A stretch of 64,000 bases of DNA from Candidatus Woesebacteria bacterium (GTDB taxonomy: Bacteria > Patescibacteriota > Microgenomatia > UBA8517): contig CP066686.1 of assembly GCA_016432365.1 (NCBI GenBank), positions 474,906-538,905 of the forward strand. The letters are read 5' to 3'. The notes beneath the pieces are model-generated. The model worked only from the letters and a program-made list of their open reading frames with translations, had not been told where the DNA came from and made no database searches. The stretch's first letter is position 1, and every line of letters begins with the position of its first letter. Positions 15,005-46,633 of this stretch are shown here, piece after piece. The position numbers and the translations under genes are program-made.

Positions 15005-15024
15005 TGCTAAATTATAATGGTTAT

Positions 15025-17902: not shown

Positions 17903-17917
17903 TATCATAAATAATTC

Positions 17918-24102: not shown

Positions 24103-25121
24103 AGATTGCAATTGATGCCAGACCACTCGTCTCGGGAGATTCTGTTCGCGGAATAGGTGTTTACACCAGAGAGTTAGTTGATGCATTTAAAAAAAGTAAA
24201 AAAGAATTCAGTGTATTAGATCACAATTTCGATAATATTGAGATTTCCAAATTCGATTTGATTCATTTCACTTCATTCAACCCATACATAATTTCCGTTC
24301 CTTTTATAAAACCTAAAAATACGAAGTTTGTTTTAACTATTTATGATTTGATCCCTCTCATCTACCCCGCACATTATCCGTCCGGAATTAGGGGTGGAAT
24401 TAGGTGGACACTAAATAAATTTCTTATCAAAAAGAACATTGATGCGATTTTGACTATATCCGAGACTTCGAAAAAAGACATTTGCAGGTTTTTGGGTGTG
24501 GACCCCGATATTGTTCATGTTGTTTATCTTGCCCCGCGCCCGGTTTTTAGGAAATTGGACACCGGAAAAGACTGCATCACTCCGTGTGGGAAATCGGAAA
24601 TTAAGAAGAAATATAATTTACCGGATCGATTTGCGCTGTATGTTGGGGACGTTAATTACAATAAAAACATTCCCGGTTTGGTCAAAGCTTGCGTCTTGGC
24701 TAAACTACCCTTGGTAATTGCCGGTAAGCAGGCAAAGGAGATTGAAAATTTAGACTTAAACCATCCGGAACTTAAACACCTTAAAAATATTGATTGGACG
24801 GGAGTTATTAGGCTGGGGTTTGTTCCTGATATAGACCTTGCGGCTATTTATAACCTGGCATATGTTTTTGTTCAACCGTCTTTTTATGAGGGTTTCGGTT
24901 TGGGGGTTTTGGAGGCCATTGCTTGTGGAACGCCGGTTGTAGCTTCAAAGACTCAAGCACTGGTCGAGATTGCTGAAGGTGCTGCCACCTTCGTTAACCC
25001 AGATAATAGTGAAGATATGGCAATCGGTTTAAAAAATTTAGCTAAAAGTCCGAAACTCCCCAGGACTTACTCATGGGAAAAAACCGCCAAGGAAACATGG
25101 GAGGTATACCAAAATGTTTAA
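24099..25121 (+). CDS. GT4-family (GT-B) glycosyltransferase, 340 aa
   Basis: ATG at 24099 with upstream AAGGAGG. C-terminal EGFGLGVLEAIACGTPVVASK (E-x7-E region). Confidence 0.8.
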   Translation: MKIAIDARPLVSGDSVRGIGVYTRELVDAFKKSKKEFSVLDHNFDNIEISKFDLIHFTSFNPYIISVPFIKPKNTKFVLTIYDLIPLIYPAHYPSGIRGGIRWTLNKFLIKKNIDAILTISETSKKDICRFLGVDPDIVHVVYLAPRPVFRKLDTGKDCITPCGKSEIKKKYNLPDRFALYVGDVNYNKNIPGLVKACVLAKLPLVIAGKQAKEIENLDLNHPELKHLKNIDWTGVIRLGFVPDIDLAAIYNLAYVFVQPSFYEGFGLGVLEAIACGTPVVASKTQALVEIAEGAATFVNPDNSEDMAIGLKNLAKSPKLPRTYSWEKTAKETWEVYQNV

Positions 25122-26259
25122 AAAGATTTTGACCTCTTTTTTGATCTGGCGTGTAGCTCTGTTTTTTGTTGCGTTCTTATCGATCTGTTTTTTACCGGTT
25201 TTCGGTGCCAGATTTCCATATGTAGATAAAGTATTGGAAATAACCCATTTGCCTTACTGGGTTTGGGGATTTGGAAATTTCGACGGAGTCCATTATCTTC
25301 GGATTGCGCAGGACGGTTATCTTGCTCAATATTCCCAGGCTTTTTTCCCGCTTTTTCCAATCTTAATTCGATTTTTTTCCATTATTTTTCCAAGGGTGGT
25401 AAATCTCGATACTGTTTTTTTTACCGATCCGGCCTTTTTTTATTCAGGGATAATTCTTTCTAATTTATTTTTTCTGGCAGCGCTTTACATTTTATTTAAG
25501 TTAATTAATATTGATTTTAAAAAGGAGATTGCTTTTTATACCGTTATCTTTCTTTTGGTATTTCCAACTTCGTTTTTCTTTGGCTCTATATATACTGAAA
25601 GTCTGTTTTTGCTACTCACGGTTTCTTCCATCTATTTTATTAGAAAAGGGAATTTCTTTTGGGGAGCAATCTTGATTTCGCTTGCTACCATAACCAGGAT
25701 CACGGGAGTGCTTCTTATACCATTGTATTTAATAGAGGTGTTTCAAAGTAGGAACAAAATTAACTATATTTGGACTTTGATTGCTCCATTGGGGCTTTTT
25801 GCATATATGTATTTTCTAAAATCTGCCTTCAACGACCCGCTCTACTTTTTGACCGCACAACCCATTTTTGGGGCGGGGAGAAGTGGAACAGATTTAATTC
25901 TTCTTCCCCAGGTAATTTATAGATACATAAAAATATTTTTGACGACAAGCATTGTGACCTTACCATTTTTCAATGCATTTATCGAATTTGTATTTACTCT
26001 AATTCCTCTTACAATTTTGATAGTCTTTTTTAAGAAAATGAGATTTAGTTATTGGTTCTTTTCTCTTAGCTCGCTTTTGCTCCCAACCTTGACCGGTACA
26101 TTTTCTTCGATGCCAAGATATGTCCTTATGTCTATGGTGTTTATTTTTCCCTATTTAATTATCCGGTTTAGAAAATATGTCACGCCTTTTATTCTTGCAT
26201 CGATGGTTTTTGGAATTTTGTTGACCATGCTTTTTGTTAGGGGGTATTGGGTAGCTTAA
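25114..26259 (+). CDS. Polytopic membrane protein, PIG-V/GT76-like mannosyltransferase candidate (GT-C), 381 aa
   Basis: ATG at 25114 with GGGAGG RBS. Motif FDGVHYLRIAQDGY...QAFFPLFP resembles the conserved loop of the PIG-V/Gpi18 family. ~9 TM segments. Confidence 0.4.
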   Translation: MFKKILTSFLIWRVALFFVAFLSICFLPVFGARFPYVDKVLEITHLPYWVWGFGNFDGVHYLRIAQDGYLAQYSQAFFPLFPILIRFFSIIFPRVVNLDTVFFTDPAFFYSGIILSNLFFLAALYILFKLINIDFKKEIAFYTVIFLLVFPTSFFFGSIYTESLFLLLTVSSIYFIRKGNFFWGAILISLATITRITGVLLIPLYLIEVFQSRNKINYIWTLIAPLGLFAYMYFLKSAFNDPLYFLTAQPIFGAGRSGTDLILLPQVIYRYIKIFLTTSIVTLPFFNAFIEFVFTLIPLTILIVFFKKMRFSYWFFSLSSLLLPTLTGTFSSMPRYVLMSMVFIFPYLIIRFRKYVTPFILASMVFGILLTMLFVRGYWVA

Positions 26260-27073: not shown

Positions 27074-28348
27074 ATGAAAACACTTAGAAAATTTATTAAT
27101 CACCCCCTTTTTTCAGGCAGCGCCATAATGATTGGCGGCAGCATGACCATTAACGTGGTGAATTATATATACCATCTGGTTATGGGTCGTATTCTTGGCC
27201 CGGTTAATTACGGCGTTCTTGCCAGTCTGTTTTCAATTTTATACATTGTCGGGATCGTACCGTCATCAACTTCAGTTGCCATTGTAAAATTTATTTCTTC
27301 AGCTAAAAATCCCGGAGAAATGATGACAATTTACAATGCACTAAACAAACTCGTTTTCAAATTGGCATCGGCCATATCAATAGTAACAATTATTGCTGCT
27401 CCTTTTATTGCCAACTTTTTACATATTGATAATGTTTTTCTTATTATTCTTATAACCCCGATTTTATTCTTCTCTCTTTTAACCTTAGTTAATCAAGCCA
27501 CTTCGCAGGGTTTATTGAAATTTATGGGATTTGTCTTACCCAATTTTACGTCTTCTCTTGCCAAAATTTGTTTGGGTGTACTATTTGTCATCATGGGTTA
27601 TTCTGTATTCGGTGCAATGATCGGTGTTTTTGCTGGAGGCTTTTTGGCTTTTTTTGTTTCGAAATGGTATATACGTGACATTAAAAAAATAAGGAAGTTT
27701 AAAAAGAAATATAATTTAAAACCATTTTTGAAATATTCACTGCCTGTTTTTTTACAAGCCTTAGCATTCACTTCGATTTTTACAACAGATGTAATTCTTG
27801 TTAAACATTTCTTAACCCCTTTCGATGCCGGAATCTACGCAGCTCTTTCTACGCTTGGTAAAATAGTTTTTTTTGCATCCGCCCCCATTTCTTCTGTGAT
27901 GTTTCCGGTCGTTTCCGGTAGAAGTGCCAAAGGGGAAAAATACTTAGGAATATTTTGGGGTTCGTTTGGCTTGACGCTTGCTGTTTCGGCTGTAGTAGTC
28001 GGTATTTATTATTTCTTCTCGGATTTTGCGATAAATATTCTTTACGGCCCGGCATATTTGTCAGCGTCAATTGATTTGGTCTGGATGGGTCTTTTTATAC
28101 TCGTATACACCCTTGCTTTATTGTTGGTAAATTTTTCACTTTCTCTTGGAAAAACGCGAATAATAGTATTTCCGGTATTGGCTGCGTTTGGACAAGCAAT
28201 ATTGTTATGGATTTTTCATTCAAGTATTTTGGAGGTTATTCAGGTATCGCTTGCCATATGCACCCTCATGCTTTTTGGTGAAGGCGTTTTTTTGGGATAT
28301 AATTCGCGGTATGGCCTGGCCAAAGGAAAACAATATGGAAAAGCCTAA
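27074..28348 (+). CDS. Polysaccharide/oligosaccharide flippase (Wzx-like, MOP superfamily), 424 aa
   Basis: ATG at 27074. ~12 predicted TM segments. Size and hydropathy pattern typical of the polysaccharide biosynthesis protein family. Confidence 0.6.
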   Translation: MKTLRKFINHPLFSGSAIMIGGSMTINVVNYIYHLVMGRILGPVNYGVLASLFSILYIVGIVPSSTSVAIVKFISSAKNPGEMMTIYNALNKLVFKLASAISIVTIIAAPFIANFLHIDNVFLIILITPILFFSLLTLVNQATSQGLLKFMGFVLPNFTSSLAKICLGVLFVIMGYSVFGAMIGVFAGGFLAFFVSKWYIRDIKKIRKFKKKYNLKPFLKYSLPVFLQALAFTSIFTTDVILVKHFLTPFDAGIYAALSTLGKIVFFASAPISSVMFPVVSGRSAKGEKYLGIFWGSFGLTLAVSAVVVGIYYFFSDFAINILYGPAYLSASIDLVWMGLFILVYTLALLLVNFSLSLGKTRIIVFPVLAAFGQAILLWIFHSSILEVIQVSLAICTLMLFGEGVFLGYNSRYGLAKGKQYGKA

Positions 28349-29108
28349 GATCAAAATTCTTTCAGTAATTGTCCCCGCCTATAAACAGGAGAAAACCATC
28401 AGGCAGGATTTGGATAATATTTTATCAACATTGGGAGAAGGGTTGGGGAGGGACTACGACTTTGAAGTGATCTGTGTTGTGGACGGCGACATGGACAAGA
28501 CCTTTCGGGAGGCATCAAAAATTAAATCTTCAAAATTGAAAGTGTTTACTTATAAAGTTAATAAAGGCAAGGGTCATGCGGTACGTTTTGGAATGGGAAA
28601 AGCTAAAGGTGAAATAATATCCTTTTTAGATGCCGGAATGGATATAAGTCCAAAAGGGATAATGATGCTTTTGGCGCATATGAATTGGTATGATGCAGAC
28701 ATAATAGTGGGATCAAAAAAACACCCTGTTTCCCGTGTTAATTATCCTCTCTTACGAAAAATCTTGAGTTTGGGTTATCATGTTGGTGTTAAGCTTCTTT
28801 TTAATCTTTCTCTTACGGACACTCAAAGCGGAATAAAAATATTTAAACGAAAAGTCGTTGAGAAAATTCTTCCTCGGCTTCTGGTTAAAAGTTACGCAAT
28901 GGATATCGAAATGCTTTCGGTTGCTAAATATTTGGGCTTCAACAGGATCTTCGAAGCTCCGATAGAGGTACGGTTTAATAAATCCAATAGTGCAATAAAA
29001 TGGTCAACTTCTTTTTGGATGGCTTGGGATACAGCGGCAGTTTTTTACAGACTAAAAATTCTTCATTACTATGATGATGCTAATAGAAAAAGCTGGATAA
29101 CAAGTTAA
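28335..29108 (+). CDS. Family 2 glycosyltransferase, ~257 aa
   Basis: Track ORF 28188 overlaps the flippase gene. Internal ATG at 28335 preceded by AAAGGAAAA gives MEKPKIKILSVIVPAYKQEKTI...VVDGDMD. Confidence 0.75.
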   Translation: MEKPKIKILSVIVPAYKQEKTIRQDLDNILSTLGEGLGRDYDFEVICVVDGDMDKTFREASKIKSSKLKVFTYKVNKGKGHAVRFGMGKAKGEIISFLDAGMDISPKGIMMLLAHMNWYDADIIVGSKKHPVSRVNYPLLRKILSLGYHVGVKLLFNLSLTDTQSGIKIFKRKVVEKILPRLLVKSYAMDIEMLSVAKYLGFNRIFEAPIEVRFNKSNSAIKWSTSFWMAWDTAAVFYRLKILHYYDDANRKSWITS

Positions 29109-34620: not shown

Positions 34621-35277
34621 ATGATATCAAAGTCGATTAACACATGGGATCAGACAAAGCATTGGGAAGAAGCCTGTATCGAGACAAGGCGCAATCCAGA
34701 TGAAAGAATAAGAAGACTCCGTTTTTTTAGAATAAAGAAAAAAGAAAAAATTTTAGATTTGGGTTGCGGGGATGGTCTTAATGTCCACATTTTATATAAA
34801 AAAGGTGTTAAAAATATATTCGGTGTTGATATTTCTGATGCACTTATTAAAAGCGCAAAGCGGCTGACACCGAAGGCCAAATTTTATTTAGCCAGCGCTG
34901 AAAAACTTCCGTTTAAAGATGAAACATTCGATGTTGTATTGGTGGATTCGGTTTTCCATCATTTCATGAAGTATCGTAAGGCTTTGGGAGAAATCAATCG
35001 GGTCTTAAAGAAGAAGGGCAGGCTTTGTTTCATAGAACCGCACAAAAGTATTGTAAGAAGTTTGTACGACGCTGTTTGTGAGTTACCAATAAGCAAATAT
35101 ATCCCTTTTCTTAAAAAGCGGCGGATATCGTATTTGGGTGAGATAAAATTTATGAGACATTGGTTGAAAACAGAAGACGATTTTTATGAAACGTTGACAG
35201 AACTGAAGTTTGTAGAAAGATTACGTAAATTAGACATTATGAGTACCATAGGAATATATGAGAAAGCTTCTTATTAA
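34621..35277 (+). CDS. Class I SAM-dependent methyltransferase, 218 aa
   Basis: ATG at 34621. Motif I ILDLGCGDGLNVHIL. DVVLVDSVFHHF. LKKKGRLCF. Confidence 0.7.
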   Translation: MISKSINTWDQTKHWEEACIETRRNPDERIRRLRFFRIKKKEKILDLGCGDGLNVHILYKKGVKNIFGVDISDALIKSAKRLTPKAKFYLASAEKLPFKDETFDVVLVDSVFHHFMKYRKALGEINRVLKKKGRLCFIEPHKSIVRSLYDAVCELPISKYIPFLKKRRISYLGEIKFMRHWLKTEDDFYETLTELKFVERLRKLDIMSTIGIYEKASY

Positions 35278-37411
35278 ATATTTTTTCCCGATTCTGTTTG
35301 TACCGATTTTGTTTTTGTTTTTTGGTGTTGGCACGATTAAAGACTACGGAATTAATTGGGATGAACCTTATCATTTCATGCGGGGTCAGGCGTATTTGCA
35401 CTTTTTTTTGACTGGAGAAAAAGACTATTCAACCTTACCAAAATATCCGAGGGTGAATAGCAACTGTCCATCGTGGGCAAACAACAAATGCAATATATCT
35501 CCTGGCGGCGCCACTGACACAATGCCTTCAAATGTAAAAGGTCCGATTTATGAGGACGCCATAACTGCCCAATATCCACGCAAGCTTTTTTCGTTGTGGC
35601 GCAGCGCTTACCAACACGATACTTATGATTATAATTATATTGTTATAAATGAAGGCGGGCACCCTCCGATTAATGATATTTTGGCTGCCTTGACTAATAC
35701 AATTTTTTACCAAAGGCTTCATTTAATGGGAGACCTAGACTCCCATCATTTATATGAGGTGCTAACGAGTTTCTTAATAGTTTTAGCAGTTGGTGTAGCA
35801 ACTTACCTTAATTATGGAGCCCTACCGGCTTTTGTTGCTTCTTCATCCTTGGCGATCTACCCCTTATTTTTTTCGGAATCACATTTTAATATCAAGGACC
35901 CGCCACTGGCATCTTATTATGGTCTTACTTTGCTTTTTCTTTTCTTTGGTATTACAAGAAAAGAATGGAAATTGGTATTAATATCTTCAATTTTTGCGGG
36001 ACTAGGTTTGGGAACTAAGTTAAACATTGCTTTTGCTCCACTTATTGTTGTTCCATGGCTTTTGTATTTTTTGTTAACAAAATATATTGAAACGAAAAAA
36101 CTATTTTTGTCAAAAGGCACGTTTGTAATGCTGATCTTTTACGCTCCGGTTGTGCTGGGAATAGTTTACGCTTTATGGCCCTATTTATGGTCAGATCCTT
36201 TTAGAAATACAATGCACATACTAGATTATTACAGGCAGATAGGTACCGGCACCGCCGCGGAGATGACTTCATATCTAGTCGGCAAATGGAATACCTATCC
36301 TGTTTTATGGATTGTTTATACTACTCAAGTTCCAATTTTGTTACTGGCACTAATAGGGGTTGTCTATTCTGTTTACTCGACTGTTAAAGGAAAAGACAGT
36401 TTCCCACTACTGGTTTTGCTTTGGTTATTGGTACCAATTTTACGTGTATCTTGGCCGGGAGCGGGGATATATGGAGGTGTTAGACAGCTATTGGAATACG
36501 TACCGGCATTGGCAATTGAGGCAGGCATTGGGGCCTATGCCTTAACTCGGTATGTAAAATATAAAATTGCAATATCAATACTGATTGTAATTTCAATCGT
36601 TTTTTCCATGTATGAAATAGTGATGATACACCCAAATGAGAATGTTTATTTTAACCAGTTGATAGGTGGTCTGTCCGGGGCAAGAAGTAAAAACATTCCT
36701 TACTGGGGGAATACATATGGAAATGCTTACCAGCAGGGGGTGGATTGGCTCAATAAAAATGCGGTGCCTAACGCAAGGTTGGGTTTGGCTATTGCAACAC
36801 AGGCAAACATAAGTAGAAACAGTCTGCGTTCAGATATTGAATATTACAACGGTTCTTGGAGCGGCACCAAAAGAGAAGGGGAATATGAAATAGAACTGGA
36901 TTTTGAGTGGCCGTTTAAATATTGGTATAGTTTTCAATATTATGATAAATATTTGGATCCGGTTTATATATCAAGTGTCGACGGCGTACCGCTTGTTAAG
37001 GTTTGGAAAAATGATATTGAACACACAAAGCCTGCGTTTCGTGAAGAAATAAATTACCAACCGGCTTCGACATTGTTAAGAAAAAACACAGCAAATAAGG
37101 AGTTGTGGATTGACATGGGGAAAGATATTTTTTTGACGGGCTTGAAAATTTGGCATAGTAATGTGGGATGTAGCGTACAGAAGGGGGGATATGTTGCCCT
37201 TTCCACAGATAACAAGACATGGGTGAGGGAGGCAGATCCGCCCGACACAGCACAGGTTCCTCCGACGACTGCTGAGTGGAAAAAGGGAAATTTTCTATTT
37301 TTATTTCCCGGAACAAAGGCTAGATATATTTTATTTGACCCGCAAATGAACGACACCTGTATATTTAAAAACATGAGGATACAAATTTCAGGGCTTAAAA
37401 TTCTACCTTAA
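35258..37411 (+). CDS. PMT/ArnT-like GT-C membrane glycosyltransferase fused to a C-terminal discoidin (F5/8 type C)-like carbohydrate-binding domain, 717 aa
   Basis: ATG at 35258. First-loop NWDEPYHFMRGQAY. ~12 TM segments. C-terminal ~150 aa soluble with WIDMGKDIFLTGLKIW...ARYILFDP...MRIQISGLKI, resembling the discoidin-domain pattern. Confidence 0.5.
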   Translation: MRKLLIKYFFPILFVPILFLFFGVGTIKDYGINWDEPYHFMRGQAYLHFFLTGEKDYSTLPKYPRVNSNCPSWANNKCNISPGGATDTMPSNVKGPIYEDAITAQYPRKLFSLWRSAYQHDTYDYNYIVINEGGHPPINDILAALTNTIFYQRLHLMGDLDSHHLYEVLTSFLIVLAVGVATYLNYGALPAFVASSSLAIYPLFFSESHFNIKDPPLASYYGLTLLFLFFGITRKEWKLVLISSIFAGLGLGTKLNIAFAPLIVVPWLLYFLLTKYIETKKLFLSKGTFVMLIFYAPVVLGIVYALWPYLWSDPFRNTMHILDYYRQIGTGTAAEMTSYLVGKWNTYPVLWIVYTTQVPILLLALIGVVYSVYSTVKGKDSFPLLVLLWLLVPILRVSWPGAGIYGGVRQLLEYVPALAIEAGIGAYALTRYVKYKIAISILIVISIVFSMYEIVMIHPNENVYFNQLIGGLSGARSKNIPYWGNTYGNAYQQGVDWLNKNAVPNARLGLAIATQANISRNSLRSDIEYYNGSWSGTKREGEYEIELDFEWPFKYWYSFQYYDKYLDPVYISSVDGVPLVKVWKNDIEHTKPAFREEINYQPASTLLRKNTANKELWIDMGKDIFLTGLKIWHSNVGCSVQKGGYVALSTDNKTWVREADPPDTAQVPPTTAEWKKGNFLFLFPGTKARYILFDPQMNDTCIFKNMRIQISGLKILP

Positions 37412-38352
37412 GGGCTTGTTTCTTCAATATATTTATTTTTTGACAGATCTTTCTGGTTTAAGTTGACGATCATTTCTGCGACCAACCCGGTAGATATAAG
37501 TTGTACACCGATTATCATCAAGAGCATTCCCAAAAACAATAGTGGTTGGCGAAATTGGATTGAACCGGTTGTGACTCTCAGATAGGTAATATAAATACCG
37601 ATTAAGAAACCGATAAAAAACGAAGCTATGCCCCAAAATCCAAAAAAATGGCCGGGGCGTCTAATGTACCCTGTTAGAAAAACTATAGTTATCAAATCGA
37701 GTACACCTTTAATATTTCTTTCTATACCAAATTTACTTTTACCAAATTTTCTGGGTTTGTGAGATACCACGATTTCTGTAACTTTAAAATTTTGATGTGC
37801 GACAAGAACTGGTATGAATTTGTATAGTTCTCCATAAAGATGAATATTTGTCAAAACTCTTTTTCTGTAGGCTTTAAAGCCACAATTCAAGTCATGAATT
37901 GTTACGCCCGTAAGCTTTCTTGTTAGTAGGTTGCCAATTTTTGAAGGTATAGTTTTACTGAGGGGGTCATATCTTTTCTTTTTCCAACCAGAGACCAGGT
38001 CGTAACCCTCCTCAATTTTTTTTACGAACTTTGGTATTTCCCGCGGGTCATCCTGCAGATCGGCATCCATTGTGATCACTATTTCGCCGCGGCTGGCATC
38101 AAAACCACTTTGTAATGCTATCGATTTTCCGAAATTCCCTCGATGTTTTATAATCTTAATATTCTTATTGTTGCGGCTGAGCTTTTTTGCGATTTCAAAA
38201 GTGGAATCCGTCGAACCGTCGTCTACAAAAATAATCTCAAAAGATTTACGAAGTTTTTTCATCTCAACAACAACTTGAGAATATAGCGACGAAATCGTTT
38301 TTTCTTCGTCCTTAGCAGGAATAATAAATGAAACTTGCGGAACTTTTGTCAT
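37408..38352 (-). CDS. Polyprenyl-phosphate sugar synthase, GT2 with C-terminal TM helices (GtrB/CsbB/DPM1-like), 314 aa
   Basis: ATG (CAT at 38350..38352). Motif SFIIPAKDEEKTI...IIFVDDGSTDST...TMDADLQDDP. Two C-terminal TM helices (FFGFWGIASFFIGFLIGIYI, LFLGMLLMIIGVQLISTGL). Confidence 0.8.
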   Translation of the reverse strand: MTKVPQVSFIIPAKDEEKTISSLYSQVVVEMKKLRKSFEIIFVDDGSTDSTFEIAKKLSRNNKNIKIIKHRGNFGKSIALQSGFDASRGEIVITMDADLQDDPREIPKFVKKIEEGYDLVSGWKKKRYDPLSKTIPSKIGNLLTRKLTGVTIHDLNCGFKAYRKRVLTNIHLYGELYKFIPVLVAHQNFKVTEIVVSHKPRKFGKSKFGIERNIKGVLDLITIVFLTGYIRRPGHFFGFWGIASFFIGFLIGIYITYLRVTTGSIQFRQPLLFLGMLLMIIGVQLISTGLVAEMIVNLNQKDLSKNKYIEETSP

Positions 38353-38852
38353 TACTTAAGTTTTTCGATCAAAATATTCATTGTATCAATGTCTTGTTGA
38401 GACAAGAGCCAGTAGGGAGTATTGGCAGGGAAGTTGTCCCTCATCTTTCCAAGGATTGGCTTGTATTTTTCAAACAAACTGATAATTTCTGACTTTTTTT
38501 CTTGAGATTCTTTGACAGAACTTTCAGCAAGGACCCCCGCCGCAAAAGCCAGCCTTTGCGAGGCGTCCGAGATTTGTGACTGCTCCTTATTCTCTACAAG
38601 GCTTACGTATTCGGACACTCTTCTTTCAAGTAGCCATTTTCTGTACTCATACTTTGAATTTTTGGAAAATTTAAACTTTTCTGATACTTTCTCCTTTGCC
38701 CTTTTGAACAAATAGCCGGAACTCCCTGGAAGCGTTTTTTGGGGAGTTAATCCAAAAGATTCCGGAGACTCCGCAAAAACGGCTGGGGCGATTGACAAGA
38801 AGAGAACTAAGACCGAAAATACTGCCAAAAGACGCAACTTGAAAGATGTCAT
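38352..38852 (-). CDS. Small secreted hypothetical protein, 166 aa
   Basis: ATG (CAT at 38850..38852). Signal peptide MTSFKLRLLAVFSVLVLFLSIAPAVFA. Charged, helical-looking remainder. Confidence 0.45.
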   Translation of the reverse strand: MTSFKLRLLAVFSVLVLFLSIAPAVFAESPESFGLTPQKTLPGSSGYLFKRAKEKVSEKFKFSKNSKYEYRKWLLERRVSEYVSLVENKEQSQISDASQRLAFAAGVLAESSVKESQEKKSEIISLFEKYKPILGKMRDNFPANTPYWLLSQQDIDTMNILIEKLK

Positions 38853-39707: not shown

Positions 39708-39790
39708 GCAGAATAATAAATGCTACTTCTAGCTCACTCTAATTCATAAGTTTTTTTTATAATTGTCTTTTACTAGCGGTCTTGCGTTTT

Positions 39791-40462
39791 ATGTCTGCGA
39801 TGATTAGAATGCAGGTCACAGTTATGTTTAAAGAATTGTTGGATTACGAAGATGAATTTCACCTCCTTTATTTAGGGAAACTCACTAAACGCGAAGGCTG
39901 GAAAAACGTTAGAGAACATGGCGTTACCCAACTACTTGGTGCAAAAGTGTTGGGAGCCTTGCTTGGATTAACAGACGGAGAGCGAAGAGCCTTGGAGTCG
40001 GTTGCAATTATTCATGATTGGGAAAAAAGACTGGATAATTTTCCTGATGATTTTTCGCCAGCTGAGAAAGAAAAAATAGAGCTTTATTACAAAAAAATCA
40101 AACCCGACGAAAGATTGATGGCTGCAACCGGTCCGGATTTTTTGGAAAAAGTTTTATATGCAGAAGTTTCAATATTAGAATTTCTCCAGTTCTATTTAGA
40201 TGATATAACCATGGGGTCTGAGATTGTTCCTTTTGACAAGCGCATCGAAGAAGTCTCTACAAGGAAACAGTATTTAAATGATGACGGCGATTTAACACAA
40301 AGATTAGGTGGAAGAAAATACTGGGAACTTGAAATGGAAGTCGGACATTTGGTGGAGAATATGATTTTCGATTCTTTGAAAGCTCGTGGTGTTGAAATTG
40401 GCAGTCCAAAAGATATACCCTATCTTATAAAGAACAAAATTATAGAACTATCAAATGTTTAA
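39791..40462 (+). CDS. Hypothetical cytoplasmic protein, possible HD-domain phosphohydrolase, ~223 aa
   Basis: Track ORF begins at TTG 39782. First ATG is 39791. Motif H...HD (VREHG...VAIIHDWEK) suggests an HD fold. Weak. Confidence 0.35.
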   Translation: MSAMIRMQVTVMFKELLDYEDEFHLLYLGKLTKREGWKNVREHGVTQLLGAKVLGALLGLTDGERRALESVAIIHDWEKRLDNFPDDFSPAEKEKIELYYKKIKPDERLMAATGPDFLEKVLYAEVSILEFLQFYLDDITMGSEIVPFDKRIEEVSTRKQYLNDDGDLTQRLGGRKYWELEMEVGHLVENMIFDSLKARGVEIGSPKDIPYLIKNKIIELSNV

Positions 40463-41576
40463 CCACATTCCAGTTAACGAACCCGTTTTGTCTGAGGACT
40501 CGAAGATATTTGTAAATAAGGCACTTGATAGTGGATGGATATCCTCATCAGGCAATTATGTAAAGGAGCTAGAGGAAAAGTTTGCTTCTTATATTGGTAT
40601 GAAATACGGAATAGCCGTTTGTAACGGTACGGCCGCACTTCATGTCGCGTTATTATCATTAGGGGTTGGCCCCGGAGATGAGGTAATTGTTCCCGCTTTT
40701 ACAATGGGTGCAACATGGCTTGCAGTGTTATATACAGGAGCGAAACCGGTTTTCGTCGATTGTGAACCTGATACTTTTAATATTGATGTTAAACAAATCG
40801 AAAATAAAATTACAAAAAGAACAAAGGTAATCATTCCGGTTCACATTTATGGGCACGCGGCAGAGATGTCTGAAATTATGAAAATTGCAGGTAGACATAA
40901 AACTATGGTTTTAGAAGACGCAGCGGAAGCTTGCGGCGGGGAATACAAGGGGAAAAAATGTGGTTCTTTCGGAGAAATAAACGCATTTAGTTTTTATGCC
41001 AACAAAATAGTCACGACAGGCGAAGGGGGAATGATGGTAACTAATAACGAGGTCTTAGCAACAAAAGCAAGAATGTTTAGAGATTTGCACCACTCGGCAG
41101 CCAAACGGTTTATCCATGATGGTATCGGGTTTAATTATAGAATGACTAACCTACAAGGCGCGCTGGGGTGCGGGGAAATAGCCCATATCGACGAGTATCT
41201 TCTTAAAAAGCAGTATATGGCCTCCCTATACGATATCCTGCTTAAAGATGTCCCAGGAATCAGATTGCCAAAAACTAAAAGCTATGTAAAAAACGTTTAC
41301 TGGATGTATGGGATTTTGCTTGACGAAGAAAAATTTGGAATGAGTAAGAATAGGCTTCGTGAGGAACTTAGCAATAAAGGGATTGAGACAAGGGACTTCT
41401 TTTATTCGCCTAACAACCAACCCGTCTTGAAAAAATATCTGAAAAACAACGATAAGTTTGTTAATACGGAAAATATTGAAAGAAATGGTTTATATATTCC
41501 TTCTGGGTTGGCACTAACTGATAAACAAATGATTAGTGTGGCATCTGCAATAAAAAGTTTGTACGTTGCAAAATAG
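40455..41576 (+). CDS. DegT/DnrJ/EryC1/StrS-family PLP-dependent sugar aminotransferase, 373 aa
   Basis: ATG at 40455. Motifs GTAALHVALLSLGVGPGDEVIVP and FSFYANKIVTTGEGGMM (PLP lysine). Confidence 0.85.
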   Translation: MFNHIPVNEPVLSEDSKIFVNKALDSGWISSSGNYVKELEEKFASYIGMKYGIAVCNGTAALHVALLSLGVGPGDEVIVPAFTMGATWLAVLYTGAKPVFVDCEPDTFNIDVKQIENKITKRTKVIIPVHIYGHAAEMSEIMKIAGRHKTMVLEDAAEACGGEYKGKKCGSFGEINAFSFYANKIVTTGEGGMMVTNNEVLATKARMFRDLHHSAAKRFIHDGIGFNYRMTNLQGALGCGEIAHIDEYLLKKQYMASLYDILLKDVPGIRLPKTKSYVKNVYWMYGILLDEEKFGMSKNRLREELSNKGIETRDFFYSPNNQPVLKKYLKNNDKFVNTENIERNGLYIPSGLALTDKQMISVASAIKSLYVAK

Positions 41577-41642
41577 CCCCTTTGCACGATTTTACATGGA
41601 GACTCAAATTATTATCGATACATTCCTAGTGGCGATTAATTC

Positions 41643-41651
41643 TGGTATAAT
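41643..41651 (+). promoter_or_regulatory. Extended -10 promoter element TGgTATAAT upstream of the PseB-like dehydratase gene
   Basis: Perfect TGnTATAAT at 41643..41651, 14 nt before ATG 41666. No SD, which implies a very short leader. Confidence 0.4.
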
Positions 41652-41665
41652 CGTGACAACCAAAC

Positions 41666-42664
41666 ATGACAAAAATTCTTAAGGGGAAACGAATATTAGT
41701 TACGGGAGGCACGGGATCCTTTGGACGCATGTTCATCGGTGAAATTCTGAAGTACGAACCCAAAGAAATAATTGTTTTTAGCAGAGACGAAGACAAACAG
41801 GGTATTATGAGGTTGGAATATAAGGATAAACTGGGTATTCGTTTTGTGTTGGGGGACATAAGAGATTTTAGAAGTGTTCGTGAGGCCGTGCGAGGCGTGG
41901 ATATCATCGTTCATGCGGCTGCTCTAAAGTGGATCACAGAGGTTGAATATAATGTTTGGGAAGGTGTAAAAACTAACGTAATTGGCGCAGAAAACATAAT
42001 TGAAGCGGCCAGAGATGAGGGTGTAGAAAAAGTTGTCGCACTTTCGACTGACAAAGCCGTTGAACCGATTAATGCTTACGGAATGGCAAAAGCGCTTCAG
42101 GAGCGACTTATTACAACTGCAAATCTCTACGATGTGGGCAACACCGTTTTTGTTTCTACAAGGTATGGGAATGTTCTTGGATCAAGAGGGTCTGTAGTGC
42201 CACATTTTAAGAAATTAATTTCGGAAGGCAAGCCATTAACTATTACAGACACCGGGATGACCCGTTTCATTCTAACTCTCCAAAAAAGCGTTGAGTTGGT
42301 ATTAACGGCAATGACAGAAGGTGTAGGTGGAGAGGTGTTTGTAAGAAAAATGCCGGGCCATTCCATCATAGATCTTGCCGAAGTCCTTCTGGAGGCCAAC
42401 GGTAAAAATACTAAGAATATTATTAATATGGGAATCCGTCCCGGTGAAAAAATTCATGAAACACTGATTAGTCCGGCAGAAAGTGTGAGAACAGTTGAAT
42501 TTGGAGATTACTATGTAATTTTACCCCAGATTTCTATCCCGGCGGTAGAGAAAAAATATTCAGGTAAAAAGACGTTAAAAGAATTCAGATACGCCTCAGA
42601 CACCACTGAACAAATCGGAAAAAAAGAACTCCGTTCGTTATTAGAGAAAGAGGGTTGGATATGA
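41666..42664 (+). CDS. UDP-HexNAc 4,6-dehydratase, PseB/FlaA1/CapD (PglF-like) family, 332 aa
   Basis: ATG at 41666. Motifs KRILVTGGTGSFG, STDKAV and YGMAKAL. Confidence 0.8.
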   Translation: MTKILKGKRILVTGGTGSFGRMFIGEILKYEPKEIIVFSRDEDKQGIMRLEYKDKLGIRFVLGDIRDFRSVREAVRGVDIIVHAAALKWITEVEYNVWEGVKTNVIGAENIIEAARDEGVEKVVALSTDKAVEPINAYGMAKALQERLITTANLYDVGNTVFVSTRYGNVLGSRGSVVPHFKKLISEGKPLTITDTGMTRFILTLQKSVELVLTAMTEGVGGEVFVRKMPGHSIIDLAEVLLEANGKNTKNIINMGIRPGEKIHETLISPAESVRTVEFGDYYVILPQISIPAVEKKYSGKKTLKEFRYASDTTEQIGKKELRSLLEKEGWI

Positions 42665-42693
42665 AGCTCCCCAACACAATCGGCAGGGTATCT

Positions 42694-42790
42694 TCTCCCA
42701 GCGCTTTGTCGGGAGCGGAATCCCTCCGAAGCGAAACCTCTTCGCTTTCACCCTCAGAGGCTTTAAGCCCGGGGTATTCGCGAAGGGGGA
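42694..42790 (+). repeat. GC-rich palindromic element (copy B) between the PseB-like gene and ATG 42796, sharing the GAAACCTC core and CCTCC...GAGG architecture with copy A
   Basis: CTCCC-N11-GGGAG (42695..42715). GAAGCGAA-ACCTC-TTCGCTTT (42728..42748). CCTCC.../...GAGG flanks. High local GC. Confidence 0.4.
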
Positions 42791-42795
42791 TAAAA

Positions 42796-43671
42796 ATGAA
42801 AATTGGTATAACCGGTGCAACAGGGTTCATGGGCAGGCATATTATTAATAAACTTCAAGGTGAGGGTCACTCAATTAGTGTTCTTGCAATAGAAGAAAAA
42901 CCTACACTACCCAAGGATATAAAGTGGGTACATGGCAATTTAGTTAGCGGGGTAGGCATAGCGAAGTTTTTAAAGGATGTTGAAGTGGTTATTCATTTAG
43001 CGGGAAGAAATTTGCCGCCGGAAGAGGAATTAATTAAAGATAACGTTTTGGCTACCCGCAATCTGGTGATAGAAATGTTAAAGCACCCAATAAAACAACT
43101 CATCTTTACTTCATCGGTAGCTGTTTATGGAAAAGACAAAAAAAGTAAATTTAAGGAAACCGATGAATGTTTCCCGAACACCGAATACGGATTGACAAAA
43201 TATCTCGCTGAAAAGGAGGTTCAATATTGGGTTACAAAAACCGGCAATCCTGCAACTATTTTCCGCCCCTTTAACGTTTATGGTCCTGGAAATTCTAAGG
43301 GGATAATTTACACATTTTACTCAAACATAAAAAACGATGGCAAGGTGATTATTTACGGTGATGGTAAACAAGAAAGAGATTATTTGTATGTCGGTGACAT
43401 AGTTGAAGCATTTTCTACAGCAATACGAATCAAGAAAAGGGGAATTTTCAACTTAGGGGCGGCTAAAAAATATTCGGTTTTAGAAGTGCTTGAAGTTTTC
43501 AAAAAGGTGATGAGGAGAGATATCGAAGTTGACTTTACCTCTACGGAGGAGGGTAAGGTCTTCAACATTAACCAGGATTTGTCCTTGGCGAAAAAAGAAC
43601 TCAAGTGGGAGGCGAAAACTTCATTTGAGAAGGGTTTAAGAAAAACAATTGAATGGTATGAAAAGCAGTAA
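42796..43671 (+). CDS. NAD-dependent epimerase/dehydratase (extended SDR), 291 aa from ATG 42796 (alternative ATGA-coupled start at 42661 would add a 45-aa Ser/Pro-rich N-terminal extension)
   Basis: AAGGGGGA RBS then ATG 42796 gives MKIGITGATGFMGRHI. Catalytic YGLTK. The frame is open back to 42655 (TTG) and 42661 (ATG overlapping the upstream TGA). Confidence 0.7.
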   Translation: MKIGITGATGFMGRHIINKLQGEGHSISVLAIEEKPTLPKDIKWVHGNLVSGVGIAKFLKDVEVVIHLAGRNLPPEEELIKDNVLATRNLVIEMLKHPIKQLIFTSSVAVYGKDKKSKFKETDECFPNTEYGLTKYLAEKEVQYWVTKTGNPATIFRPFNVYGPGNSKGIIYTFYSNIKNDGKVIIYGDGKQERDYLYVGDIVEAFSTAIRIKKRGIFNLGAAKKYSVLEVLEVFKKVMRRDIEVDFTSTEEGKVFNINQDLSLAKKELKWEAKTSFEKGLRKTIEWYEKQ

Positions 43672-44734
43672 GAACTTTCAAAGGGGTAGAATTCTTCTTG
43701 TAAGCCACGTTTACCACACTGAATCAGGGCCTGTATACGGACCTTTTAATGTAATTAAAGATTTTCTAAACACAAACAAAAGGTCGTTTCAAACGATCGA
43801 GTATCCGTTAGTCTCCCGTACACCGCTTATCATAAAATCTGTTTTTGAAACGGTTAAAACAGTAATGACAGCTGCTGTTTACAAACCGAAAATTTTTATT
43901 GGAATTGACCCCTTGAATGCGTTCGCTGGTGTGATTCTAGAGAGGTTTGGTTTAGTGAAGAAGGTGGTTTTTTATTGCGTTGATTATACACCAACCAGAT
44001 TTAAAAATAAGATTTTAAATAGCGTTTATCTTGGTATTGACAAGTTTGTATCAAAAAATTCCGATGAGGTCTGGAACGTTTCTTCGAGAATTGTCGAAGT
44101 TAGAAAAAAACAAGGTATATCTGATTCGAAAATAAAGTTTGTTCCAAATGCACCGATTTTTGGAAGTTGCCCAAGATTACCTGCTGAGAAAGTGAATAGA
44201 AATAATATAGTTATGGTCGCCGGACTGACCCATGGTCCCGTGTTGGATCTTGTTCTGAAAGCCTTTAAGAACGTTGTGGCTAAATTTTCCAAGGCAAGAC
44301 TTTTAATAATTGGGACCGGACCTTATCAAGATAAATTGAGACTGAAAACCAAGAAAATGGGACTTTCTGAAAATATAAAATTCTCGGGACAATTACCAAA
44401 CAAAAATTTATTACACGAGGTTTCAAAATCAGGTATAGCCTTAGCAATTTACACCTTCTCGGATGATTACAGCTGGATTTATTATGGAGATTCAAAAAAG
44501 GCGAGAGAATATTTGGCTTGCGGTACACCGGTCATTATTACTGATGTGGTCGCTACCGCGGGGGATGTGAGAGACTACAACGCCGGCTTGGTAATTAAAC
44601 CGAATTCAGAAAGCCTGGAGCAGGCGCTAAGTAAAATTTTAGGAGATAAAAATTATTGGTTGAAATGTAGGAAAAACGCAGCCAAATTGGGCAAAGATTA
44701 CGATATCGACTCGATATTAGGCAAAATAATCTAA
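43658..44734 (+). CDS. GT4-family glycosyltransferase, ~358 aa
   Basis: Track ORF begins at TTG 43649. ATG at 43658. C-terminal ...SKKAREYLACGTPVIITDV... GT-B pattern. Confidence 0.7.
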   Translation: MKSSKNFQRGRILLVSHVYHTESGPVYGPFNVIKDFLNTNKRSFQTIEYPLVSRTPLIIKSVFETVKTVMTAAVYKPKIFIGIDPLNAFAGVILERFGLVKKVVFYCVDYTPTRFKNKILNSVYLGIDKFVSKNSDEVWNVSSRIVEVRKKQGISDSKIKFVPNAPIFGSCPRLPAEKVNRNNIVMVAGLTHGPVLDLVLKAFKNVVAKFSKARLLIIGTGPYQDKLRLKTKKMGLSENIKFSGQLPNKNLLHEVSKSGIALAIYTFSDDYSWIYYGDSKKAREYLACGTPVIITDVVATAGDVRDYNAGLVIKPNSESLEQALSKILGDKNYWLKCRKNAAKLGKDYDIDSILGKII

Positions 44735-45669
44735 TTTTCTCGTTTGAGGTAATCTTCAATTGTTTTTTTTAATCCTGTTTTGAAATCTGTTTTGGCTTTA
44801 AACCCAAATTCTTTTATAGCTTTACCTACATACAATCTTCTTCTTGGCTGACCGTCCGGTTTTGATTTATCGAATATAATGCTGCCTTTAAAACCAATCA
44901 TTTTTGAGATTGTTCTTGCCAGTTCTTTAATGGATATCTCAAACCCCGACCCCAAGTTTATAGGGTCAGGTTTATTGTATTTTTCGCATGCCTTTAATAT
45001 TCCCTCTGCGGCGTCATCCACGTAAAGAAATTCACGGGTGGGTTTCCCGGATCCCCAAATTACAACTTTCTTGGATTTGGTATTTCTTGCTTCGGCAAAC
45101 TTCTTAATAAGTGCTGGGATTACATGCGAAGAGGTGGGATCAAAGTTGTCTCCCGGTCCGTACATATTTACAGGTAGAAGGTAGATGGAATTAAACCCAT
45201 ACTGTTTTCTATACGCTTGAGATTGAACCAAAAGCATTTTTTTAGCTAGGCCGTAGGGCGCGTTTGTTTCCTCAGGGTACCCATCCCAAAGATGCTCTTC
45301 CTTAAAAGGAACAGGTGTAAATTTTGGATATGCGCAGATTGTACCTATCAAAACGACCTTTTGTACATTGCAGGCCTTCGCTGCACGCATAATGTTGATA
45401 CCCATTATGATGTTGTCGTCAAAAAGTTCTGCTGGTTTACTTTGGTTGTATCCAATTCCACCTACATTTCCTGCAAGATGGATTACAATATCTGCATTTT
45501 TAAATGCTTTAAGGCAGGATCGATAATCTCTTAAATCGGTTTTTTTGTGGTTAGGAATCACTATTTTTGCCGGTTTTAACTTTAAAAGTTTTTTGACAAG
45601 GTGGATTCCCAGGAAGCCACTTCCTCCGGTTACTACAACGATTTTACTTTTCCAAAAATTCTTCATCAT
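44731..45669 (-). CDS. fcl: GDP-L-fucose synthase (GDP-4-keto-6-deoxy-D-mannose 3,5-epimerase/4-reductase)
   Basis: ATG (CAT at 45667..45669). Motif [13 protein letters not shown]. Long collinear match to E. coli Fcl as recalled ([24 protein letters not shown] vs [39 protein letters not shown] vs WGSGTPMREFLHVDD). Confidence 0.85.
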   Translation of the reverse strand: [312 protein letters not shown]

Positions 45670-45673: not shown

Positions 45674-46633
45674 TTATTTTACCTTATTTTTGAAGTTGAT
45701 CTTTTCTGAAATAAGGTAGATTGGTCTATTGATAATTTCTTTATGCAAAAAACTGACATATATGGCGACGATTCCCATACTTGCTATGACAAAACCGATT
45801 AAAAGTGTGTTAAACACAACTAATACGATTGTGGGGGAAAAATATCTAATATTTTTTTCGTAAAGTATTACTGAAATCATGCAAATAAGACATATTAGTG
45901 AGGTGATAATAAGAAAAAGGCCGAAATACAGAATATATTTTAAAGGTTTAGTTGAAAGTGAAAGAATTCCGGTTTTGGCAAACTCCAGATTTCTCCCGAA
46001 GTTATACCAGGCCTTCCCCGCAGTTCTCCTTCTTGCTACATAGTCCACTACGGCAGTGGGATACCCCATCCAGGAGACCATCCCTCTCAGGAATCTGTTT
46101 TTTTCTTTCATGGTTTGAAGCCGTTGGTAGACCTCTTTATCAAGCAATTTAAAGTCCGCCATTCCTTCTTTGATTTGTGTGTCTGAAAGCGCATTAGTAA
46201 AAGCATAAAAAAATTTAGACATTAGATTTTTAAAGAAGGGAATATCTTCGGTTTCCACCCGTCTTGTGTGTACAATTTTTGCGCCCTTCAACCACTTGGA
46301 TATTAATTTCGGAAATAAACTTGGAGGATGTTGTAGGTCCGAATCAAGGTAGATGACAGCATCACCTTTTGCTGCATCAATTCCGGCGGTTATTGCTATT
46401 TGTTGTCCAAAATTACGTGTTAATCTTATGCCCTTTACTTTTTTATTGTGTTTGGCGATCCGCGATATTTCGGGCCATGTACCATCCGAGCTTCCATCGT
46501 CAACAATAATACATTCGTAATTAAATCGACCAATTTTTTGCATTACACCGTTCACCTCGTCTGCCAATTTTGCCAAACTTTTTTCTTCGTTGTGGGCCGG
46601 GGTTACAATGGTGATAAGTTTTCGTTTTGTCAC
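45674..46633 (-). CDS. Polyprenyl-phosphate sugar synthase, GT2 with C-terminal TM helices (GtrB/CsbB-like), 319 aa
   Basis: GTG start (plus-strand CAC 46631..46633). Motif ITIVTPAHNEEKSL...IIVDDGSSDGT...LDSDLQHPP. Two C-terminal TM helices. Confidence 0.75.
   Translation of the reverse strand: MTKRKLITIVTPAHNEEKSLAKLADEVNGVMQKIGRFNYECIIVDDGSSDGTWPEISRIAKHNKKVKGIRLTRNFGQQIAITAGIDAAKGDAVIYLDSDLQHPPSLFPKLISKWLKGAKIVHTRRVETEDIPFFKNLMSKFFYAFTNALSDTQIKEGMADFKLLDKEVYQRLQTMKEKNRFLRGMVSWMGYPTAVVDYVARRRTAGKAWYNFGRNLEFAKTGILSLSTKPLKYILYFGLFLIITSLICLICMISVILYEKNIRYFSPTIVLVVFNTLLIGFVIASMGIVAIYVSFLHKEIINRPIYLISEKINFKNKVK

Follow-up and report, generated by a model that had tools for sequence, protein, structure and literature searches.

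The window analysed here is a stretch of 64,000 nt from contig CP066686.1 of Candidatus Woesebacteria, and the coordinates of open reading frames (ORFs) are given as window positions. It has a G+C content of ~37% and is coding almost throughout, with nearly every ORF assigned to glycan biosynthesis by profile scans. Two of its genes encode membrane-anchored family 2 glycosyltransferases, termed GT2a and GT2b in the following. GT2a (37408..38352, minus strand) is an ArnC-like putative polyprenyl-phosphate glycosyltransferase of 314 aa that comprises a GT-A domain with the motif DADLQD, juxtamembrane helices, two C-terminal transmembrane (TM) helices and a C-terminal beta strand. GT2b (45674..46633, minus strand) is a GtrB/PgfS-like putative enzyme of the same kind with 319 aa, a GTG start codon, the motif DSDLQH and two C-terminal TM helices. 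An earlier note on this DNA had described two GT2 ORFs with a DxD-containing GT-A domain plus two C-terminal TM helices and placed them in the GtrB/ArnC/DPM1 class of lipid-phosphate-sugar synthases. Their coordinates and strand were borne out, the architecture agrees with Pfam, motif, hydropathy and PDB alignments, and the class is supported by PDB, NCBIfam and Foldseek matches. We consider it likely that GT2a and GT2b synthesise polyprenyl-phosphate (Pren-P) sugars and that glycosyltransferases of the GT-C type use these products. The predicted reaction is the conversion of a nucleoside diphosphate sugar and polyprenyl phosphate to a polyprenyl-phosphate sugar.

In both proteins, the GT-A catalytic domain is N-terminal and was recognised by the Pfam profile Glycos_transf_2 (PF00535; GT2a, 5e-33 and 114.8 bits; GT2b, 1e-31 and 110.3 bits; cut-off 23.3). 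Exactly two TM segments were located near each C-terminus by Kyte-Doolittle hydropathy (residues 237-255 and 273-291 in GT2a, 239-257 and 277-295 in GT2b). Against PDB sequences, GT2a matched ArnC best (8.9e-46, GT2a residues 4-300), followed by GtrB (4e-29) and Pyrococcus furiosus DPMS (3e-19), and GT2b matched GtrB sll0501 (8.2e-52, GT2b residues 7-310), followed by ArnC (8e-28) and DPMS (7e-21), with both alignments also covering the two TM helices in the cryo-electron microscopy or crystal chains of ArnC and GtrB. The best NCBIfam profiles, matched over the full length, were ArnC for GT2a (6e-54) and PgfS for GT2b (3e-70), with AglJ and other lipid-phosphate hexosyltransferase profiles lower in the lists. 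By E-value, these matches to the family are far beyond chance. The profile assignment suggested in the earlier note thus yielded lipid-phosphate sugar transferases for both proteins, and the two outcomes it had named as contradicting its reading, a lack of TM helices or best profiles of the soluble WcaA type, did not occur: the helices were found, and the best matches were ArnC, GtrB, PgfS and DPMS.

An AlphaFold2 (AF2) model of GT2a, computed from an alignment of 20 orthologues (predicted local distance difference test score, pLDDT, 80.4), consists of a GT-A core, a helix at residues 131-148, an amphipathic helix at 210-228, long helices at 233-262 and 269-301, and a C-terminal strand at 309-313. 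These helices and the strand reproduce the domain order of ArnC, i.e. GT-A, JM1/JM2, TM1/TM2 and a C-terminal hairpin bridging protomers (PMC12690121). When the model was compared with the PDB using Foldseek, the best 25 matches were all ArnC, GtrB or DPMS (E 1e-24 to 5e-14; TM-score 0.59-0.68), with ArnC at E 1e-24 and about 31% identity; soluble GT2 structures ranked after those 25, covered the GT-A core only and scored lower. The fold of GT2b was compared by sequence only, the AF2 model being that of GT2a. Since the two proteins share 27% identity, they appear to be members of two subfamilies, not recent duplicates, and probably carry two different sugars.

Catalytic residues were mapped via HMMER alignments. 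In the solved enzymes, the DxDLQ motif reads 94DADLQD99 (GtrB), 100DADLQN105 (ArnC) and 89DADLQH94 (DPMS) (PMC12690121, PMC12698845), with D96 and Q98 of GtrB positioned on Mg2+ and D94 acting as the probable base (PMC12698845). The motif is intact in GT2a (96-DADLQD-101, comprising D96, D98 and Q100) and in GT2b (97-DSDLQH-102, comprising D97, D99 and Q101). Further residues named for GtrB are R122, which is called universally conserved, R125, K132, K180, R197, D157 and W207 (PMC12698845). GT2b has R125, K135 and D160 at the positions of GtrB R122, K132 and D157 and also contains R183; it differs at GtrB R125 (T128), R197 (A200, followed by R201-R203) and W207 (Y210). In ArnC, R128 and R137 contact the lipid phosphate (PMC12690121). 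GT2a carries K124, R127 and K133 at the positions of ArnC R128, R131 and R137, so that two arginines are replaced by lysine and R131 is kept. K124 is part of a GWKKxRxDP motif and invariant in 20 GT2a orthologues. The GWKKxR subfamily occurs in many phyla and varied gene contexts; among the matches listed, its members lie mostly outside the Candidate Phyla Radiation (CPR), at 45-52% identity, and include Ignavibacteriota, Bacteroidota, Calditrichota and Cyanobacteria. Overall, the catalytic machinery appears intact, with one conservative departure in GT2a.

The gene for GT2a is flanked on one side by that of a signal-anchored DUF5667 protein of 166 aa (38352..38852, minus strand), whose end has the sequence TAATG and shares one base with the start of GT2a, an arrangement indicative of translational coupling. 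On the other side lies its candidate cognate GT-C enzyme, a 717-aa protein of the GT39/PMT_2 type (35258..37411, plus strand; PMT_2 score 33.6 bits vs 26.1), which carries the motif WDE after TM1 and a discoidin-like C-terminus. The latter gene and GT2a are convergent, with their 3' ends overlapping by 4 nt. Next to GT2a orthologues with 66-76% identity from Woesebacteria and Microgenomates, a PMT_2 protein of 676-721 aa is encoded one to three genes away, usually in tail-to-tail orientation (loci L004, L005/6, L007/8 and L089), and a DUF5667 gene is close by in every related Woesebacteria locus examined (L004, L005, L007, L089 and L099). The lists of the best 120 homologues of GT2a and of the 717-aa protein have 19 contigs in common when matched by exact length, 11 of which are at most 20 kb long; because some of these contigs measure only 3.7-7 kb, the two genes must adjoin on them. 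The conserved neighbourhood supports the logic of a lipid-linked donor made for a GT-C enzyme.

Relatives of the 717-aa protein carry the name 'glycosyltransferase family 39'. Its comparison with the PDB by sequence gave nothing useful (best E 0.33), and its GT-C fold only became visible through an AF2 model (pLDDT 84.8; predicted TM-score, pTM, 0.84), for which the best 31 Foldseek matches were all GT-C enzymes (AglB, STT3, ArnT, AftD, EmbA/B/C, PglB, ALG12, Pmt4 and AftA). Residue D35, located in the motif W34-D35-E36 directly past TM1, is invariant in 30 homologues; according to the statement in PMC7801869 that cites Lommel et al. 2011, PMTs need an acidic motif at this position. The C-terminal beta-sandwich (residues ~597-713) resembles discoidin or F5_F8 type C domains (Foldseek: factor VIII C2, neuropilin b1), some homologues carry PF00754, and the domain probably serves as an extracytoplasmic carbohydrate- or acceptor-binding domain. 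Taken together, the conserved pairing, the GT-C fold and the D35 motif lead us to propose that GT2a, the 717-aa GT-C protein and the DUF5667 protein form one functional module conserved in Woesebacteria. That the 717-aa protein is the partner of GT2a is fairly probable, and the DUF5667 protein could be an accessory factor or an acceptor of the module. In a 1165-aa membrane protein described below, residues 696-771 likewise show a faint similarity to DUF5667 (E 0.2).

GT2b is followed at a distance of 4 nt, in the same operon, by the gene for a short-chain dehydrogenase/reductase (SDR) of 312 aa that resembles GDP-L-fucose synthase (44731..45669, minus strand). It matches the NCBIfam profile Fcl over its full length (9e-87, 291 bits, cut-off 500), and GDP-L-fucose synthases occupy all of the first 18 places among its PDB sequence matches (best 1.2e-65). 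The SDR is the only hint to the sugar that GT2b may carry; the link to fucose is no more than a lead, because a GDP-mannose 4,6-dehydratase (Gmd) was not recognisable in the window (best gmd match 2.5e-7). The GT2b-SDR pair is kept in L004, L089 and L099. In those genomes, a stretch of ~19 kb holding both GT2b and GT2a is conserved, with the order GT-C-like gene, FkbM-like and other methyltransferases, GT4, AsnB-like amidotransferase, soluble GT2, GT2b-SDR, DUF5667-GT2a and PMT_2. The gene at its start codes for a GT-C-like protein of 539-541 aa, here 541 aa with nine TM helices and the motif QDE after TM1 (53022..54647, plus strand; PMT_2 4.6e-5, 24.1 bits, sub-threshold), which is the closest-lying candidate for an enzyme that uses the product of GT2b. 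GT2b itself is transcribed divergently from the operon containing the soluble GT2, AsnB, GT4 and methyltransferase genes.

In a clade with ~57% identity to GT2b, a protein of 576-623 aa is encoded beside the homologue in divergent orientation. It has 9-10 TM helices, the motif SDD after TM1 and C-terminal TPR repeats, i.e. a TMTC-like GT-C architecture, and genes for a GT2 and for a member of the fucosyltransferase family GT11 come next. Such TMTC-like proteins are encoded divergently from GT2b-like genes in other Patescibacteria (L090, 6086-7957; L100, 3623-5353). Given this pairing and the GT11 and SDR genes, GT2b-type enzymes also travel with GT-C-like proteins, twice together with fucose-related genes. 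A scan of metagenome contigs starting from GT2b, performed with very specific patterns, returned only four weak relatives. We propose that GT2b, co-expressed with the SDR, represents a separate donor line, the product of which probably goes to other GT-C paralogues encoded in the island.

Between the two synthases lies a group of nucleotide-sugar genes (39782..43671, plus strand), encoding a 226-aa protein, a LegC/PseC-like aminotransferase, a PseB/FnlA-like UDP-GlcNAc 4,6-dehydratase and an SDR. The aminotransferase matches LegC/PseC best (8.8e-101) and ArnB less well (1.9e-66), and the window also contains an SDR with an ArnA-C-terminal-like match (6e-13) and a nucleotide-sugar dehydrogenase. 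The PseB/FnlA-like and LegC/PseC-like genes could supply a 6-deoxy or 4-amino N-acetylhexosamine.

The description of the two GT2 genes as embedded among GT-C genes was confirmed, with 19 large polytopic membrane ORFs in the window, two of them cut by its ends. Thirteen reach the Pfam gathering score of PMT_2, PMT, PTPS_related, GT87, PIG-V or YfhO, families of the GT-C clan; three are tied to GT-C enzymes by sub-threshold profile matches or BLAST matches to paralogues, and three by architecture only (7839-9485, 13100-15004 and 59144-62641). An acidic motif shortly past TM1 is present in all 19. In BLAST comparisons they fell into four paralogue groups and singletons, and the identities of 25-34% in the groups point to old duplications. 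Fourteen of the genes form a near-continuous tandem array (23..22513, mixed strands) whose first gene is cut by the window start and within which 13100-15004 lies on the minus strand and 10809-11414 is an unrelated ORF with one TM helix. The ORFs 7839-9485 and 13100-15004 form a pair without any Pfam family. Outside the array are found a PIG-V-like (Mannosyl_trans2) GT-C protein of 381 aa with seven TM helices (25114..26259, plus strand; Pfam 3.2e-16), a polytopic membrane protein of 1165 aa with ten TM helices (59144..62641, plus strand) that shows faint matches to AftD-type GT-C enzymes (E 0.02) and to DUF5667 as noted above, and the start of a PTPS_related GT-C-like protein (63170..64000, plus strand) that runs off the window and has 841 aa in full. 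GT2a and GT2b may between them supply all of the ~19 GT-C paralogues.

The glycan island extends past both window ends, spans at least 84 kb of a ~1.08-Mb genome, and contains at least 21 GT-C-like genes in the window (19) and its flanks. The 10 kb upstream (L094) encode a PMT (509 aa), a Wzx-like protein, four soluble GT2 and one GT4, and the 10 kb downstream (L092) the 841-aa PTPS_related protein, a Wzx-like protein, a PMT_2 protein (452 aa), a GT4, a soluble GT2 (279 aa) and an AglJ-like GT2 of 388 aa. The window itself holds six GT4 and four GT2 genes besides GT2a and GT2b, together with several methyltransferases; cytoplasmic GT2/GT4 enzymes number about ten in the window and some fifteen in ~84 kb. 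The DNA of the window is also present in the Logan assemblies of the groundwater samples SRR12113420 and SRR12113421.

The absence of GtrA noted earlier was borne out by scans with PF04138, which gave no match among the ORFs of the window, the 10-kb flanks and the related loci. As sole flippase candidates, the earlier note had listed a 122-aa ORF and one Wzx-like ORF. The latter stands as a candidate of the MOP family (27074..28348, plus strand; 424 aa, ten TM helices; Polysacc_synt 3.5e-15, Polysacc_synt_3 7e-15), but it is one of three Wzx-like genes in the window and its 10-kb flanks, and the 122-aa protein is not a GtrA by hidden Markov model search. For comparison, the Wzx homologue AglR is implicated in Dol-P-mannose translocation (PMC3871713), and the flippase of the Bacillus subtilis CsbB-YfhO system is likewise not encoded nearby and its identity is unknown (PMC5836110), a precedent by which the absence of GtrA is not unusual. 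The 122-aa protein (62631..62999, plus strand) has four TM helices, and its gene overlaps the stop of the gene for the 1165-aa membrane protein by 11 nt; it is coupled to the latter and to neither GT2 gene. It belongs to a small, uncharacterised family without a Pfam match (40 cluster representatives, all with 101-133 aa, four TM helices and the invariant residues P47, Y48 and N50, i.e. P-Y-x-N). PF04138 did not match it at E<=10 and matched none of 41 family members at E<=1, and a role as flippase is pure speculation.

Small membrane proteins are also encoded next to GT2a homologues of other phyla. In Bacteroidota, GWKKxR-type homologues are regularly preceded by one or two genes for proteins of 164-195 aa with 3-4 TM helices (loci L040, L051, L062, L065, L072, L076, L080, L081, L086 and L088). 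Four of these proteins were scanned (L040, two; L051 and L081, one apiece), and all belong to DUF4199, an association that might be linked with the handling of lipid-linked sugars. The identification of the small membrane ORFs beside GT2a homologues in other phyla as GtrA was rejected, with DUF4199, DUF5362 and weak CTP_transf_1 as their matches.

As to the number of donors, the two synthases of the earlier note stand as the only island GT2 genes with the canonical two-TM architecture, but two is a lower bound, since there are two further candidates. One is a DPM1/PpgS-like GT2 without TM helix directly past the Wzx-like gene (28347..29108, plus strand; 253 aa from an internal ATG, mechanical ORF start at 28188). 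Its best PDB match is P. furiosus DPMS (3.5e-11), followed by GtrB and ArnC, and among NCBIfam profiles it matches PgfS (5.7e-14) and the TM-less mycobacterial PpgS (2.2e-13 over 4-199 of 226). With its divergent motif DAGMD in place of the expected DADLQ, it is a possible additional lipid-sugar synthase, backed by weak evidence. The other is the 388-aa AglJ-like GT2 mentioned above (L092, 19063-20229, ~9 kb past the window end; AglJ 1e-33), which contains a methyltransferase-like N-terminal piece and one TM helix and is possibly a fourth lipid-phosphate hexosyltransferase of the island. Two GT2 proteins with one hydrophobic C-terminal helix (22500-23378 and 38874-39707) were rejected as lipid-sugar synthases, their best matches being GmaR/SunS and chondroitin synthase.

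Each of several known systems resembles part of this arrangement. GT2a shares with ArnC (PmrF) of Salmonella and E. coli the fold, the domain order, the DADLQ motif and ~31% identity over the full length, and it is adjoined by a GT-C enzyme of the ArnT/PMT clan. It differs from ArnC in its score far below the equivalog level and in the lysines at R128 and R137, the window lacks the ArnA formyltransferase, ArnD and ArnE/F, no lipid A is known from the CPR host, and the partner has 717 aa and a discoidin-like C-terminal domain. For GT2b, the nearest counterparts are GtrB (Synechocystis sll0501; Shigella phage Gtr) and the streptococcal GtrB/PgfS proteins (8e-52; PgfS 3e-70). GT2b has conserved equivalents of D94, D96, Q98, R122, K132 and D157, and like pgfS with pgfE, it is co-operonic with the gene of a nucleotide-sugar SDR in a GT-C-rich context. 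GtrB R125, R197 and W207, by contrast, lack conserved counterparts at their positions, the SDR resembles GDP-fucose synthase and not GalE, the PgfS score is 237 vs a cut-off of 500, and in the window and its 10-kb flanks GT2b has neither a GtrA flippase nor an adjoining GtrC/YfhO partner, so that the PF04138 scans leave the Gtr-type three-component system (GtrA-GtrB-GtrC) without its first component.

B. subtilis possesses three two-gene operons of a two-TM GT2 and a GT-C enzyme, csbB-yfhO, ykcBC and ykoST (PMC5836110). As in CsbB-YfhO, YkcC-YkcB, YkoT-YkoS and GtlA-GtlB of B. subtilis and Listeria, a two-TM GT2 is found here beside a GT-C enzyme, with the flippase often not beside them (PMC5836110), but there is one GT-C enzyme per GT2 in those systems, compared with two canonical GT2 and at least 19-21 GT-C-like genes here, and the partner is of the PMT_2 type, not the YfhO type. 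In mycobacteria, one Ppm1 donor feeds many GT-C enzymes of lipomannan and lipoarabinomannan synthesis (PMC3485146). In the actinobacterial Ppm1 system (with Pmt, PimE and Mpt) and the eukaryotic DPM1/ALG5 system (with GT-C enzymes of the endoplasmic reticulum), one or two lipid-monophosphate donors serve many GT-C paralogues (PMC3485146, PMC5882110), with the same mix of PMT, GT87 and PIG-V/PIG-M-like families as in the window; Ppm1 and DPM1 belong to another branch with no or one TM helix, and the genes of the present system differ in forming a single cluster of at least 84 kb within a genome of ~1.08 Mb. The Agl cluster of Haloferax volcanii (AglJ, AglD, AglR, AglS and AglB) likewise combines two DPM1-like GT2, a Wzx-like protein and GT-C transferases with methyltransferases and sugar-modifying enzymes and has no diphosphate-forming initiating enzyme (PMC3871713). 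It differs in that the host here is a bacterium, no AglB/STT3-type Pfam match was seen and the AglJ score is well under the cut-off.

From the observed family, fold, motifs, topology and conserved gene neighbourhood, we infer a route that extends from the lipid acceptor and the sugar through flipping and the assignment of donors to GT-C enzymes up to the final acceptor. GT2a and GT2b would act as inverting GT-A-fold Pren-P glycosyltransferases of the GtrB/ArnC/DPMS type, each anchored in the cytoplasmic membrane by its two C-terminal helices and probably assembled into a tetramer. At the cytoplasmic face, the DxDLQ motif would bind the nucleotide sugar and Mg2+ or Mn2+, and the carrier lipid, undecaprenyl phosphate or one like it, would be threaded with its phosphate head between the two juxtamembrane helices onto a basic patch, after which one sugar would be transferred to yield the polyprenyl-phosphate sugar. 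A flippase other than GtrA, for which Wzx-like proteins (cf. archaeal AglR) are candidates but which may also be something else, would move this lipid to the outer leaflet, where it would serve as the donor for GT-C enzymes glycosylating surface proteins or cell-envelope polymers. GT2a would work with the adjoining 717-aa PMT-like GT-C enzyme and probably also with the co-translated DUF5667 protein.

Several observations weigh against a role of both enzymes as donor synthases for GT-C enzymes. The equivalog cut-offs were not reached for ArnC (NF007986; GT2a 183.2 bits, cut-off 529), PgfS (NF047588; GT2b 236.8 and GT2a 139.2 bits, cut-off 500) or AglJ (TIGR04182; GT2a 93.4 bits, cut-off 325), and by these scores neither protein is an equivalog of any of the three. 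GT2a has a lysine, K124, instead of arginine at the position of GtrB R122, with the basic charge retained. GT2b has no directly adjoining GT-C gene in this genome; at three of nine CPR loci examined, the GT2a homologue lacks a PMT_2 gene within three genes (in two of them, the contig is short on that side); and the window and its 10-kb flanks yielded no recognised flippase for Pren-P sugars, be it GtrA, of the ArnE/F type or another. The fact that only the generic Pfam GT2 domain passes a curated threshold would also fit GT2 enzymes of an ordinary kind, tethered to the membrane, that either elongate a glycan by direct sugar addition or are processive synthases, without a lipid-monophosphate product. 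This is highly improbable, since the proteins align with three solved Pren-P glycosyltransferase families from end to end, juxtamembrane and TM helices included, whereas the processive synthases PgaC and NodC match the first ~110 residues only and the matches to soluble GT2 structures score lower and are confined to the GT-A core. Equally little credit is due to GT2a as a true ArnC orthologue, producing undecaprenyl-phosphate 4-formamido-arabinose for the cationic modification of lipid A or the cell wall. ArnC is its best NCBIfam and PDB match, relatives are automatically annotated with this name, and an ArnB-like aminotransferase, a nucleotide-sugar dehydrogenase and an ArnA-C-terminal-like SDR are encoded in the window. 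Yet the score remains at 183 bits vs 529 with about 31% identity, no formyltransferase, ArnD-type deformylase or ArnE/F was found among the scanned window ORFs, the aminotransferase fits LegC/PseC better and sits next to a PseB/FnlA-like dehydratase, and the GWKKxR subfamily spans many phyla and contexts. Nor are Patescibacteria known as producers of lipid A. ArnC orthology was rejected on both the equivalog score and the Arn pathway context.

Another route would resemble N-glycosylation in Haloferax: GT2a and/or GT2b would place the first sugar on polyprenyl monophosphate in the manner of AglJ, GT2/GT4 enzymes and methyltransferases of the island would extend it, a Wzx-like protein would flip the product and a GT-C enzyme would transfer it en bloc. 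No phosphoglycosyltransferase of the Bac_transf or MraY/WecA type was found among the ORFs of the window or the 10-kb flanks, and no Wzy or ligase in the window, L092 and L094. The lack of a phosphoglycosyltransferase in ~84 kb that hold some fifteen GT2/GT4, methyltransferases and three Wzx-like genes fits such a start equally well and also counts against single-sugar donors. The divergent orientation of GT2b and the soluble GT2-AsnB-GT4-methyltransferase operon speaks for an AglJ-like start as well. GT2a matches AglJ at 1.6e-26 (residues 6-303 vs 1-290 of 293), and Haloferax runs both modes, with an AglJ start and a single mannose delivered by AglD/AglR/AglS (PMC3871713). On the other hand, the AglJ match of 93 bits is far under the cut-off of 325, the ArnC/GtrB single-sugar donors are closer relatives, the tight and conserved pairing of GT2a with a PMT-like gene resembles the two-gene logic of csbB-yfhO and arnC-arnT, and a phosphoglycosyltransferase may sit elsewhere in the 1.08-Mb genome, the scan having covered the window and its flanks. 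An AglJ-like start is accordingly unlikely, and the synthesis of single-sugar donors for GT-C enzymes is preferred. A wider version of this preferred reading would have a CPR bacterium of ~1 Mb assemble the bulk of its surface glycans extracellularly in a manner reminiscent of the endoplasmic reticulum or mycobacteria, with two to four polyprenyl-monophosphate donors feeding more than 20 GT-C enzymes, non-GtrA flippases (Wzx/AglR-like or of the 122-aa P-Y-x-N family), and GT2b and its SDR producing a polyprenyl-phosphate 6-deoxyhexose, e.g. polyprenyl-phosphate L-fucose. As a joint proposal it is doubtful and slightly less credible still than an AglJ-like start; a literature search found no report of a polyprenyl-phosphate fucose donor class.

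The enzyme class is well known, and relatives of GT2a are already named GT2 or 'ArnC' automatically. In the literature search, no paper linking Patescibacteria with GT-C enzymes was found, nor was a description of this genomic setting. The assignment of the two genes is thus a handle on an undescribed system and not itself a discovery. Of the ~1.08 Mb of this Woesebacteria genome, at least 84 kb are taken up by glycan genes, among them those of 19-21 GT-C-like transferases, and the module of GT2a, the DUF5667 protein and the 717-aa protein as well as the GT2b-SDR pair provide concrete targets for reconstitution. These could reveal how CPR bacteria decorate their surface, a trait of likely central importance for an episymbiotic way of life, and how lipid-linked monosaccharides are flipped where GtrA is absent.

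Small 23S_rRNA_IVP/bAvd-like genes are located inside the glycan islands of two genomes (L004, 19854-20228; L094, 5144-5500). Their products belong to a group of four-helix bundle proteins known from diversity-generating retroelements and rRNA intervening sequences.

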